Made by a program: the position numbers and the translations under genes
Shown here: positions 45,801 through 48,039 of the stretch, piece by piece
Position numbering within the stretch: the first letter of the stretch is position 1
Layout: each line of letters begins with the position of its first letter
Assembly (NCBI GenBank): GCA_963693365.1
Contig: CAVNZM010000017.1
Location: forward strand, 5,260,708 to 5,324,707
Length of the DNA stretch: 64,000 nucleotides
Reading direction: 5' to 3'
Origin: Amoebidium appalachense
Lineage: Eukaryota; Protista; Ichthyosporea
The notes under the pieces: generated by a model
What the model was told of the DNA's origin: nothing
Databases searched by the model: none
Seen by the model: the letters and a program-made list of their open reading frames with translations, nothing else

Positions 45801-48039
45801 AGAACGTTTTACGCATTTCTCCCCTCGGAGAACTTGGTCGTTGGTGCGTTTTTGTCTGACATCTAACGACTCTGCAGGGTCCCCTGAGACTACTGACACT
45901 CTAACATTCCCTCCCCTCTCTTACTTTCCCCCCCCCCCCCTCCCCCTTTCCCTCCTCCTTCCCCTCCCATTTTCTCTGCACACTCAACAGGTCTTAACCA
46001 GATCTGCACATCGTTAGTCACAATCTTCTCACATATATGAGAGAATGATCGTATTGGTACGATTTGTCTAATATCTGACGATTCTGCAGCATCCCTAAGA
46101 CCCCCTCCCCCTCCCCCCTCCCCCCCCCCCCCCCCCCCCCCCCCCCCCCCACCTTCTCTCTCTCTCTCCCCCCCCCTCTCCTCTCTCCTCTCTCTCTCTC
46201 TCTCTCTCTCTCTCTCTCTCTCTCTCTCTCTCTCTCTCTCTCTCTCTCTCTCTCTCTCTCTCTCTCTCTCTCTCTCTCTCTCTTTCTTTTTCCTCCTTTT
46301 TTTTTTTTTTTTTTTTTTTTTTTTTTTTTTGGCGCCTGTTGTTTTGCTTGTCATTTGTTGTTCTGGTTGATTACCTGTAATCTTCGCTTATTTATGTGTG
46401 TGTGTGTGTGTGTGTGTGTGTGTATGTTGTGCGGGGTTGCACATACCGGTGTCTACTTTTCTTCTTACTGTTTTTCTCTCCACACACTTCATCTGTCCAC
46501 TTCTGCATACCCCCTTTCATAGCTATAGACACACTTCACACATTGCGTTACGCGCACGCATGCACACACCGCTCTGTTGGCGACAGCTCCCTTGGAACCC
46601 ATGCGGCATGTTACCCGCCGGCGTAACATAACTCGGACTATCGGTTTGGCTTTTTTCAAGCCCAAAGCAATGGGTGATACCATATTTCCGGCTGACATCC
46701 GGGGGCATAGCTTTCCGTTCGAAGACGATAAAGTTCCGCCCTAGTAAGCGTGTTACTACCCTGCGGCGTGGGTCAAATCTCATATTTTCCCCTCTGATTA
46801 CGAATTCTGTGGCCTTCGGGACTTAATTCTTTTCAGCTGGTGTAGTATGTTAGCCAGGGAAGTATCGACTTAGGTATCGACGGGGGAGCTTCCTAGAAGC
46901 CCCGTCTCCTGAGTTCCTATCTATATTTTTCTTGCTTCTGCTTACTGCTGCAACTTTAACCCCCGGCCTTTCCCACTGCCCTTGCCTGCATAAGCAACCC
47001 TGCTCGTCTCTGATCAAGACGGGTGACCTACTCATGTTCAAGTGAAACAGTATCTGAGTTGGGTTTCGTTAACGAGGGGAATAGGTCGAAACTCGGGTAC
47101 TGTGGATGACGTGGGCCCCCCCTGAGGATGGGCTCTGCTTATTATGCATACTCTTTATGTATGGCTTGCATTCTGCATCGTGTTATCCGTTTGTTCTTGT
47201 GTACTTCGTACTTTTTGACGCATTCAAACCCCCCCCCCCCCCTCCCCCTCCCCTCTCCCTCCAGAGCGGATTTGGGCACTACTTACCCCCCCCCCCCCCC
47301 CCCTTCCCCCCCCCCCCCCCCCCCCCCCCTCCCCCTCCCCCCGCCCTTTTTTCCTTGTAGGGAACCGCTTGTTATAAGAATCCCTCCACTTTTGAACGCT
47401 CGAAAAAGAACTTCCCGTGTCCCGTGATGACTTTTTTTTTTCCGGGGCTTTTTTTTTTGCACTTGAACAGAAGTGGTTTCTTTATTTGTGGTCTGTGGCT
47501 TTCTGTGTTCTCAGTAACTGTTCTGCATTGCTTTTGCACTGTTTTCACTTTTCTCCTTTTATTTACCTCAAATTCACTTGTGCATCCTCCCCCCTCCCCT
47601 GCCCCCTTCCTCCCCCCCCCCTCCCCCCCCCCCCCCCCCCCCCCTCCTCCCCCCCCTACCCCACCCACCCCTCTTGCACTTCTCTTAAATGCACCCAAAT
47701 GTACCCACACATGAACGGACACTCCCCCCCCCCCCCCCCCCCCCCCCAGCCCCCACCACACACACACGCACAACCGCACTCACTCTTTCCCCTCTAAACA
47801 CCCACACCCACACACACACTAACCCTCTGCTCCCTCCAGGAATGGAGATACTTGGTCGTCTTCCCACCCTACGCACAATCCACCCACTGATAGGAAAAAT
47901 GGAGCCGGAGCTCGTTGCCGCCGTGCGGAAGGAGGCGGAAAGGGGTGGAAGGGTTGTGGTGTGTGTGGTGCACCAGGACTGCATGCTGCACCGTGACCGC
48001 TGGGAGCAGAGGGGAAAGCAGAAGTGGGATTGGTTGTGA
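30860..48039 (+). CDS. F-box / leucine-rich repeat protein (FBXL-like), 13 exons
   Basis: F-box [31 protein letters not shown], then LxxLxLxxC.xxTD repeats. Exons 30860-30915, 33725-33939, 34723-34966, 35501-35592, 36205-36334, 37068-37250, 37885-37997, 38561-38639, 39298-39349, 40128-40215, 41130-41266, 42441-42535, 47840-48039. Confidence 0.9.
32178..33261 (+). mobile_element. Family A: ~1.1-kb copy of the PLE 3' region (pLTR-like) in F-box intron 1
   Basis: The unique part matches ~46330-47228 at an offset of 13967 and includes the internal (CT)n, (T)n and (TG)n tracts. C tracts on both sides. Confidence 0.95.
33024..33174 (+). ncRNA. Putative rewired hammerhead/K-turn RNA, family A copy
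   Basis: Same sequence as 46991-47141. Predicted cleavage after GUU at 33093. Confidence 0.65.
40325..40611 (+). mobile_element. Old degenerate copy of the PLE 3' RNA domain
   Basis: gcataagtaaccttgcctgtatctgatcaagacgggtgaccc...caagtgaa...tatctgagtt...ggggtcgaaact, then a C tract, then ggaagataggctctg. Confidence 0.7.
41695..42273. mobile_element. Non-autonomous piggyBac-like element
   Basis: 16-bp TIR cccctagccgttcgcc / ggcgaacggctcgggg (1 mismatch) starting with CCC, flanked by TTAA at 41691-41694 and 42274-42277. Confidence 0.8.
42572..45124 (+). CDS. PLE polyprotein (5'-truncated): C-terminal half of GIY-YIG endonuclease, CxC..HxH motif, reverse transcriptase
   Basis: The frame is open upstream of the listed 796-aa ORF and reads YALETPP...[22 protein letters not shown] (GIY-YIG C-terminal motifs). 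Then [59 protein letters not shown]. No stops or frameshifts. Confidence 0.93.
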   Translation, partial: YALETPPRTNADTDKTQRLARERFWTHILQAHVPTTGYNSQYRSHRQSRNRFTRVHNPMLYMRARLALHNTPPPTPPPPSPAPAPAPALNLPPIHPSRMFLSRCFTRRLLHIDSLMSRGIFSSAYLHRFNTSNIVRMKEHLLAFPTGIAQPRLSQIAACLKRELRSRFELERVDMSQPHVMLVSVFHNSGLDRIPLQRIIKDKEIHALLPLEMRKFRISAVWKYVSTLGYTTINCKHTARLPQDTIANIHAQPCPCNDPHYAPYVHPQHGHVLTSRLDIPGLPADFASLMHFGTKFRMQVEQTEDTTCSNLLTQALQSFCNKMYDLGMAAYPSLNPWAAAVFTKCRPFLPYAQHAPNTHTVPQASVLLLRRFQKRFVVTTMDKASNTFVIVCKKHYVSSITAELHAPAATYTVCNTAPKDIVAQHLAFLKTHDIKGTPGRRTARLPTFQAIVKMHKTPPTFRFIANSSATSLEPLSRLLTSVFKFVSPDVERMWCDVVKPHLPQNTSSWILTDSTALTHTINALNRTTRQHENTPVSVFDFSTLYTKIDLHDLKARLTTLIDAIFVKKCTDARKPHMFIKKTGSTLSWVDRVDDDSQDDSFEPKEHSLHLSKTQLVDFLCFLVDNIYVVFGDTLYKQDIGIPMGTNCAVFLANFYLFTYELDFVRKLIAHERIDVLVDFQFTRRYIDDLISLHNPRILSHLYLEDCDFGLYPKTSLQLNPAGSSPSVPYLDLHITCTNHGIHTTIYNKLDTPTFNTLDIVRFPHHDSFISRTAKYGIMTSQMHSYQRKCSTLAAFTTCTARLAKTLLNKGYSFRLLHHKMHSFLATHPHIYRGVHSSHILSIITKKINTP
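46991..47141 (+). ncRNA. Putative rewired hammerhead ribozyme with kink-turn in the PLE 3' end
   Basis: Stem II gaccta 47025-30 / taggtc 47082-87; GAAA 47088-91; stem III 47047-59 / 47091-103; GUU 47058-60; stem I ggg 47061-63 / ccc 47119-21; CUGAGGA 47122-28; K-turn agt-GA 47041-45 / GA 47105-06. Helices covary with family B. Confidence 0.68.

Follow-up and report, generated by a model that had tools for sequence, protein, structure and literature searches.

A candidate split hammerhead ribozyme, opened between A9 and G10.1, near the 3' end of a Chlamys-type PLE of Amoebidium appalachense

Hammerhead ribozymes whose sequence blocks are not circularly permuted have been published as types SGC (HRIMA-1), CSG and GCS, of which SGC and CSG cleave in vitro; the link between A9 and G10.1 was assumed there to be uninterruptible, with an insertion of 1-2 nt allowed (Eckert et al. 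2023, PMC10085705). The CChMVd viroid hammerhead tolerates one additional nucleotide at the A9-G10.1 link (PMC1636495). Some PLE hammerheads act as dimers (Cervera and de la Pena 2014, PMC4209133), and the hammerhead of the Poseidon PLE requires the element's protein, unprocessed RNA being the main template (Frangieh 2024). In the available portion of Craig et al. (2021, PMC8557442), PLEs of the Naiad/Chlamys clade are given as being without canonical hammerheads, yet some Naiad elements carry segments termed 'HHR_core' or 'HHR_half_core', in which the halves of the core lie 35-50 nt from each other and match no descriptor.

In this study, we report the analysis of a motif in 64,000 nucleotides of A. 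appalachense DNA (the window). A first-pass annotation had treated all known hammerheads as circular permutations, which the published SGC, CSG and GCS types contradict, and knew of no description of the architecture; its cyclic cross-wiring was in fact already in print (Eckert 2023, PMC10085705), and what sets it apart is the opening point between A9 and G10.1, of which no description was found in the literature. From its sequence, we give somewhat better than an even chance to the reading that the motif is the 3'-end hammerhead of a Chlamys-type PLE, with S-G-C wiring opened at A9/G10.1, and that it probably self-cleaves 3' of U47060, bending back on itself at the K-turn region.

The motif and its host element

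The window contains six intact copies of the motif, three of family A and three of family B, and four truncated or decayed copies (Table 1). All core positions are identical in the A/B alignment, and CUGAnGA, GAAA and NUH stand in register relative to the three stems I, II and III in 6/6 intact copies; the core elements are thus where they had been proposed, and the same in A and B. The descriptor and independent relatives likewise bear out a core order that departs from types I, II and III and is opened at the A9-G10.1 link. Hammerhead numbering places the predicted cut 3' of U47060. The closing helix P0 is present, one base pair longer than first claimed, and three helices had been overlooked: the 8-bp hairpin P1, a helix of 3 bp that directly follows A9, and 3 further bp that lengthen stem I.

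Kink-turns of the Kt-7 and box C/D type have a 3-nt bulge ending in U, tandem G.A/A.G pairs, and A.G or U.U at 3b.3n. Their angle is given as 60 degrees in the available part of one source (PMC2952850). The sequence pattern and its flanking helices occur in both families, with A.G at 3b.3n in A and U.U in B. The K-turn of the first-pass annotation is real as a pattern in A and B, and it is local, being no general part of the architecture, for relatives have bulges, a junction or a reversed K-turn at its place.

The motif lies 1.9 kb downstream of a Chlamys-type Penelope ORF; order and strand suggest that the two belong to one element, the gap between them crossing 1 kb of low-complexity DNA. 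The ORF protein (P0001) has an N-terminal GIY-YIG domain without zinc-binding cysteines, a CxC linker and a DKA motif, which are features of the Chlamys clade in the available text of Craig et al. (2021, PMC8557442). The copies are inserted in (C)n or (CA)n repeats and 5'-truncated, also a trait of that clade. In an RT tree built on no named Chlamys reference, the ORF groups with unnamed proteins that are devoid of the cysteines, and a support of 100 separates it from Naiad-like proteins; a Pfam search with the truncated window ORF gave no match. That PLE repeats carry hammerheads, the premise of the earlier annotation, is not directly applicable here, the Chlamys-type clade being reported as without canonical ones. 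The decayed copy at 40327-40560 was considered as an upstream pLTR and rejected, on account of its decay and its identity to A and because the ORF copy starts at its own C-run near 42590.

Table 1. Features of the motif, its copies and the host element in the window
Feature	Position	Strand	Basis or remarks
Chlamys-type Penelope ORF	42572..45124	+	5'-truncated inside GIY-YIG domain at C-run
Family A repeat unit	46119..47228	+	between C-runs; ends at element's common 3' end; shared with 32146-33261
Whole split non-circular hammerhead motif (candidate), family A copy	46990..47142	+	descriptor, folding, A/B alignment
Closing helix P0, 5' strand	46990..47000	+	46990-96/47136-42, 7 bp; 46998-47000/47130-32, 3 bp
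Hairpin P1	47002..47024	+	8 bp, 7-nt loop; directly 5' of G10.1; folding
Stem II, 5' strand	47025..47030	+	G10.1 = 47025, ~100 nt upstream of A9; 47025-30/47082-87, 6 Watson-Crick pairs; 2 two-sided A/B changes
Strut (outer) helix 5' strand (47031-36, 47038-40) and K-turn bulged strand (47041-46)	47031..47046	+	outer helix 47031-36/47110-15; bulge 47041-43 (3 nt, ending in U); G.A/A.G at 47044-45/47105-06
Stem III 5' strand, GUU triplet, stem I 5' strand	47047..47063	+	stem III 47047-59/47091-103, 13 pairs, 2 of them G.U; GUU 47058-60; stem I 47061-63/47119-21; descriptor, folding
Small hairpin enclosed by stem I, extension of stem I (47076-78), linker to stem II	47064..47081	+	3-bp extension 47076-78/47116-18; folding, A/B alignment
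Stem II 3' strand, GAAA (47088-91), stem III 3' strand	47082..47103	+	
K-turn non-bulged strand and strut helix 3' strand	47104..47115	+	folding, A/B alignment
Stem I 3' strand and CUGAGGA (47122-28)	47116..47128	+	C3 = 47122, A9 = 47128
Closing helix P0, 3' strand	47129..47142	+	folding, A/B alignment
Family A copy	32146..33261	+	motif 33023-33175
Family A copy, 5'-truncated	24769..25215	-	motif 24855-25007
Family B copy	6096..6523	-	motif 6209-6367
Family B copy	10462..10887	-	motif 10575-10733
Family B copy	55979..56304	-	motif 56077-56235
Family B copy, truncated	15807..15968	-	truncated inside stem III 3' strand
Family B copy, truncated	55101..55240	-	truncated at core
Diverged copy, truncated	8879..9001	-	truncated inside GAAA
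Decayed copy	40327..40560	+	79% identical to A over 40327-40437; core damaged; C-run interrupts

Conservation and distant relatives

The four-row A/B alignment has few independent rows and amounts to a single comparison of A with B. In it, pairing holds in 97.9% of 195 cells, and two-sided changes affect 5 of 49 pairs, a value as high being reached in 2 of 500 shuffles; these counts leave out the relative L137 described below. The two-sided changes between A and B lie in stem II, the strut and stem III, and P0 is invariant. The compensatory G-C to A-U change claimed for stem I fell on an alignment gap and was verified directly from the sequence. In public runs, variants of matching depth were found at 47029 and 47083 in stem II, and the core was free of variants at >=3% in four runs; two core positions adjoining the C-run vary at ~2% in one run, possibly through alignment slippage.

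The window copies score 18-22 with a split-order descriptor, which gave by chance four matches, scoring 12-13, in 5.96 Mb of Markov-simulated sequence. As had been anticipated, standard models miss the motif, the match to Rfam Hammerhead_1 being partial (14.2 bits against a cut-off of 34), and it does not form the nested three-way junction of types I, II and III (Rfam clan CL00010); inside the element, a search for a stable stem II that follows A9 and has GAAA downstream of it found none. Counting against the proposal, nested folds of A and B are no better than those of shuffles (z -0.80 and -1.29). In the Rfam search of the whole window, the 150 matches listed of 335 were miRNA-type matches to low-complexity DNA. 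None of 117 metagenome loci drawn by a loose pattern passed the descriptor, and viral contigs contained no related ORF and no exact motif. An order-free descriptor was noisy, the 28 rows scoring >=15 being mostly chance; type-I-like matches in one further locus (L146) were dropped.

The split order was also found behind a distant Naiad-side ORF (L137; 27% identity). Its P0, P1, II, strut and I are fully paired and stand in the same order as in the window, with a different sequence in every helix. The hairpin at the place of P1 again has 8 bp and a 7-nt loop, the distance from G10.1 to U16.1 is 34 nt in both L137 and A, and the L137 rod folds at z -5.30 against shuffles. Read by eye, 10 of 54 published Naiad consensi have the split form and 8 more have type CSG; 6 of the 8 half-core families of Craig et al. 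2021 can be resolved in the same way, as four CSG and two split. The claim of a cross-wired architecture finds support in independent relatives, both L137 and the consensi read by eye. Neither form was seen in 57 of 60 related loci, many of them without a 3' end, or in the green-algal Chlamys matches viewed. In Naiad-3_Dst a core was seen.

These data also bear on a more conventional explanation, namely an ordinary type-SGC hammerhead in which stem II is made with the bases from 47131 onward, two positions past A9, and the upstream strand plays no part. Family B would then have 6 pairs, 3 of which are G.U, and family A 4, and Eckert 2023 (PMC10085705) would still admit this offset as a 1-2 nt insertion. 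However, the downstream strand is invariant whereas 47025-30 changes together with 47082-87, the upstream pairing consists of 6 Watson-Crick pairs in A, SGC-style pairing in L137 amounts to <=1 pair, and the bases from 47131 onward are already used by P0. We regard an ordinary SGC hammerhead as very improbable.

Docking geometry and cleavage

The resting RNA would be a rod of stem III, K-turn and strut. Its terminal loop would carry the GUU/GAAA half of the core, and the P0-closed loop the half with CUGAGGA and stem II; P0 and hairpin P1 would keep the two ends of the interrupted A9-G10.1 link together as a helical junction. The rod ends would dock via stems I and II, both pseudoknots, with the strut in the role of the 'interaction helix' of SGC and CSG. 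By a crude geometry estimate, the window RNA is ~22 Å too short to dock on itself with every helix folded and can do so once the K-turn region is unpaired, and formation of all helices at once in one molecule is probably not possible in such models. The RNA must therefore loosen there or pair with a second copy.

Under self-cutting by folding back, the long-armed version of the window would require opened K-turn pairs for docking, which would make the K-turn a brake, perhaps in concert with a protein of the L7Ae family. As ~38 bp would still join both products, cutting would nick the RNA reversibly and not set the products free; such a nick may serve to process read-through or tandem transcripts while the element can still be copied. 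That a conserved K-turn has to open is, we note, awkward for the view of a monomer docking on itself.

Pairing with a second copy is the other way out. The K-turn would then stay folded as a ring corner, and the hammerhead would be active only head-to-tail among two or three copies, with one rod's CUGAGGA/stem II end docked on another rod's GUU/GAAA end; cutting would be confined to tandem transcripts and to RNAs brought together by the element's protein. The fully folded monomer misses closure by ~22 Å in the window and in L137, both with 16+9 pair steps, and A and B alike retain the K-turn pattern. Dimeric PLE hammerheads (Cervera 2014), the protein requirement in Poseidon (Frangieh 2024) and partial tandem joints in contigs of public runs also agree with it. 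Yet most relatives can close as monomers: with generous geometry, self-docking is possible for 7 of 13 family members, and another 2 fall short by 2 Å. The lengths of the ring sides cluster weakly at whole helical turns (Rayleigh p ~0.03, or ~0.1 once the nematodes are collapsed, with no specificity for 11 bp), and no full tandem of the motif is present within the window. We consider exclusively head-to-tail activity possible, though rather unlikely.

A further explanation, which we judge improbable, is that the fold derives from a hammerhead, no longer needs to cleave and is kept as a protein-binding or template-protecting 3' structure. Copies continue seamlessly across the predicted site, and none of the nine window copies with a readable 5' end begins there (47061); no pile-up of ends was seen in contigs of public runs, which cannot show RNA ends. 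A competing helix in A buries G8/A9 with a probability of 0.58. A U at position 17 makes a weaker triplet than C or A. U17, the 3-bp proximal stem I and the competing fold could all slow cutting, and a main role of unprocessed RNA as template is on record for Poseidon (Frangieh 2024). Against loss of cleavage, the catalytic nucleotides and the NUH triplet are kept in place at ~27% protein identity while the helix sequences turn over, a pattern that fits selection on chemistry. Since distant relatives keep the wiring, the window motif is predicted to be likely self-cutting.

Comparison with known hammerheads

The motif adds an opening point that the systematic six-permutation scheme excludes, so pattern searches for hammerheads, and perhaps for other ribozymes, have a blind spot. 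It also answers the published puzzle of Naiad/Chlamys elements that lack canonical hammerheads, some of which nevertheless have unexplained core halves, and extends non-circular hammerheads from rare environmental contigs to high-copy eukaryotic retroelements, those of animals and, in the window, of the Chlamys side of the clade. Should the head-to-tail arrangement be true, each RNA would be a bent rod whose two ends carry half an active site each, and the hammerheads missing from much of the Naiad/Chlamys clade would be the split and CSG forms.

The HHR_core and HHR_half_core segments belong to the same PLE clade, and the available part of that paper proposes no structure for them (PMC8557442). 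In CChMVd a single nucleotide is added to a continuous chain, whereas here a chain break is closed by two helices. The window K-turn differs from those of the Kt-7 and box C/D type in sitting between stem III and the strut, with A-U as the canonical-side closing pair, and in not being conserved across its family. With the type I hammerheads of PLEs (Cervera and de la Pena 2014, PMC4209133) the motif shares the kind of element, the sense strand and a place near the element's 3' end; those form nested three-way junctions with a very short stem III, in contrast to the two core pseudoknots and long stem III proposed here. Closest are SGC, CSG and GCS, which have in common with it the cyclic block order S-G-C, stems I and II as pseudoknots and a short linker from stem I to stem II; SGC and CSG also share an extra helix that connects stems I and II at their far sides (in the window 47031-36/47110-15). 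In all three, block C is intact, whereas in the window motif it is split, the 5' strand of stem II lying ~100 nt upstream of CUGAnGA. Unlike in those types, the break is clamped by P0 together with P1, and the extra helix runs on into stem III by way of the K-turn. The types of Eckert 2023 come from metatranscriptomes, metagenomes and one bacterium, and the window motif from multicopy eukaryotic genomic DNA. The S-G-C cross-wiring is thus already known, and the split between A9 and G10.1, clamped by P0 and P1, is the part for which no published precedent was found.

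Structure and variation of the motif

The motif, assigned to the 3' end of a Penelope-like element (PLE), is real and conserved, and among hammerheads it forms a new variant whose chain is opened between A9 and G10.1 (the split form). All hammerhead elements named in the first-pass annotation were found by sequence and folding at the positions it had claimed. Beyond the additional hairpin P1, directly 5' of G10.1, two short helices of 3 bp were seen: one follows A9 and the other extends stem I. The geometry is long-armed, and the non-canonical side of the K-turn faces the core. 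Three intact copies each of the two repeat families that bear the motif, A and B, were present in the window, with four truncated or decayed ones.

Positions of the motif parts in the window
Feature	Position	Strand	Basis
CUGAGGA	47122-28	+	sequence
GAAA	47088-91	+	sequence
GUU	47058-60	+	sequence
Stem II	47025-30/47082-87	+	sequence/fold
Stem III	47047-59/47091-103	+	sequence/fold
Stem I	47061-63/47119-21	+	sequence/fold
Closing helix (P0)	46990-96/47136-42	+	sequence/fold
Outer helix (strut)	47031-36/47110-15	+	sequence/fold
K-turn pattern	47038-46/47104-09	+	sequence/fold
Hairpin P1	47002-24	+	additional helix

In a four-row alignment, which amounts to a single A-versus-B contrast and not to four, 97.9% of 195 cells were paired, and two-sided change was seen at 5 of 49 pairs, 2 of them in stem II. 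Changes at 47029 and 47083 in public contigs would together preserve one stem II pair; the depths at the two positions were similar in three runs (12,918/11,428; 1,419/1,434; 9,480/8,831) and less alike in a fourth (26,556/49,601), the variants being unphased and some runs possibly the window's own source. No variation of 3% or more was found at core positions in these contigs; at a 1% threshold, two positions adjoining the C-run vary at about 2% in one run. The folds of A and B were no better than those of shuffled sequences (z -0.80 and -1.29) under models that score neither pseudoknots nor K-turns, and a competing helix in A covers G8/A9 with a probability of 0.58.

At least two further subfamilies were visible in public runs over 30-36 letters (window 47018-47125), with GAAA and the K-turn letters kept and with a different stem II or a shorter stem III. 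One public contig carries TTAGGG-like repeats between two motif pieces (47089-47099), possibly a telomere-linked insertion.

The host element and its relatives

The ORF at 42572-45124 matches the full-length protein P0001 at 99% over residues 89-938 of the latter, whose N-terminal GIY-YIG domain (E 3.4e-4) scores slightly under the Pfam cut-off. The cysteines of the PLE group Naiad are absent from this domain, and a CxC linker and a DKA motif are present. In a FastTree phylogeny containing no named references, P0001 grouped with the proteins that lack the cysteines (support 100). Every motif copy is inserted in C-runs, and a single 3' end is common to all. A cysteine-less GIY-YIG, the CxC linker, DKA and C-run insertion are given as traits of the Chlamys clade in the accessible part of the Naiad/Chlamys survey of Craig et al. 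2021, and the host is taken as a Chlamys-side element. The window's ORF copy is 5'-truncated at a C-run and the motif lies 1.9 kb downstream on the same strand; since the family A unit starts at a C-run of its own (46119), we only infer that ORF and motif form one element.

In three of nine window copies (8879-9001, 15807-15968 and 55101-55240) the 5' truncation falls inside the motif's 3' half, as though reverse transcription had stalled at the knot, three being too few to test. Immediately upstream of the family B copy (6096-6523), a 63-nt 3'-end piece at 6540-6602 (-) is joined to it at a C-run, making a partial tandem. Intron-rich host genes at 27916-29509, 52117-53586 and 57483-57974 (all -) stand amid (CA)n and C-run microsatellites; their translations resemble what we take to be a PRELI-type protein and a small GTPase.

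Related ORFs were taken from prokaryotic genome records with eukaryote-type contigs. These 60 Naiad/Chlamys loci (L118-L177; 383 kb), many redundant or lacking a 3' end, are most likely mis-binned host contigs. An order-free scan gave locus L137 the top score outside the window, amid many chance rows and with the wrong stem II partner. A split-order descriptor, its spacings chosen after inspection of the window and L137, gave seven matches in 657,608 bases from 158 sources (six window copies and L137); on simulated sequence (5.96 Mb) it gave four, with scores of 12-13. L137 also has features outside the descriptor: its closing helix comprises 10 bp plus 4 bp, its strut has 9 bp, and G10.1 is preceded by a hairpin of 8 bp whose loop is 7 nt long. 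Its minimum-energy fold is the rod of stem III and strut (z -5.30), with a 4-nt bulge at the site of the window K-turn. In L137 the motif is in sense orientation and follows a Naiad-side ORF (27% identity) at a distance of about 550 nt. This ORF (L137:1-2640, P0022) ends in a ubiquitin carboxyl-terminal hydrolase domain (PF00443, E 5.6e-27).

Type CSG, one of the non-circular hammerhead types named by block order in Eckert et al. 2023 (PMC10085705), was matched by descriptor, with its interaction helix, behind Naiad-like ORFs at L165:5135-5235 (+, score 24) and L167:4345-4435 (+, score 21), where Rfam gave no match; the CSG alignment of that paper holds two sequences. Neither form was found in 57 of the 60 loci.

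According to the accessible text of Craig et al. 2021, canonical hammerheads are absent from Naiad and most Chlamys elements, and listed 'HHR_core' and eight 'HHR_half_core' cases match no descriptor. The Naiad consensi in its File S5 were read by eye from motif searches and one full part, with names mostly inferred from record order. At least 10 of 54 show the split form with P0 and P1 (Bfor, 3_Chem, Amil, Aacu with mismatches, Anas, 2_Movir, Plae, 4_Dst, Obim, Ovul), at least 8 of 54, seven nematode and one spider, show type CSG (Ppac, Parc, 1-3_Nbra, Hcon, Hpol, Smim), and the horseshoe-crab consensus (Lpol) shows an SGC-like form; the remaining 35 were partly covered, one core variant being left out and matches across line breaks hidden. 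These split and CSG readings would explain six of the eight half-core families. None of the forms appeared among the green-algal Chlamys matches displayed. Between stem III and strut the relatives have a bulge of 1-7 nt or a three-way junction, and octopus elements have a K-turn whose polarity is reversed; thus the bend is conserved and the K-turn is not, and the K-turn pattern proposed earlier stands for the window motif but not for the architecture at large.

Proposed folding in cis and predicted cleavage

Closure of the monomer was estimated with 2.8 Å per pair and generous slack. It came out as possible for 7 of 13 family members, with two short by 2 Å and four by 8-22 Å; the window and L137 each fell short by 22 Å. 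Hammerhead stems II and III are coaxially stacked with stem I alongside stem II (accessible parts of Eckert et al. 2023 and Cervera 2014), so the strut must span back from where stem III ends, away from the core, to the distal ends of I and II. The window RNA is estimated to close with the K-turn region unpaired.

Because of this closure and the estimates for most relatives, cis folding was taken as the family default, and we lean slightly towards a model in which the K-turn is a hinge that must loosen for docking and that a protein might keep closed. The main rival, a head-to-tail dimer in place of a cis-folding monomer, appears less likely, and has precedent among PLE hammerheads (Cervera 2014, accessible part). 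Folding in cis remains our preferred reading. Work by Lunse in 2017 reportedly offers a precedent for dimer action of PLE hammerheads as well.

After the predicted cut at 47060, about 38 bp would still connect the products and re-ligation would be favoured. This would fit the seamless copies, and also the Poseidon PLE hammerhead, which in the accessible part of Frangieh 2024 depends on the protein of the element and is not required for insertion in vitro. None of the nine window copies starts at 47061. The motif is very probably an active ribozyme in some state.

Comparison with published hammerheads

Standard models do miss the motif, as anticipated: the Rfam match was partial only (14.2 bits). 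In a literature search covering few subscription journals, no description turned up of a hammerhead with its opening at A9/G10.1, of permuted forms in Naiad/Chlamys or of a K-turn within a natural hammerhead. Within that scope the opening appears to be undescribed; the cyclic S-G-C order is known from Eckert et al. 2023. The pseudoknot hammerhead of Zhan 2024, as far as its accessible text goes, has pistol-like connectivity and is a different form.

In the accessible part of Eckert et al. 2023, the hammerhead is split into blocks C, G and S, taken as uninterruptible; SGC, CSG and, weakly, GCS were validated in vitro, and an additional helix connects stems I and II at their far sides. An SGC pairing with block C intact is possible on paper in our families, with six stem II pairs in B (three of them G.U) and four in A, but it leaves only one in L137 and is without covariation. 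The window motif shares with the published types the cyclic order S-G-C and the same additional helix, whereas its block C is cut, with the 5' strand of stem II heading the chain and CUGAGGA closing it.
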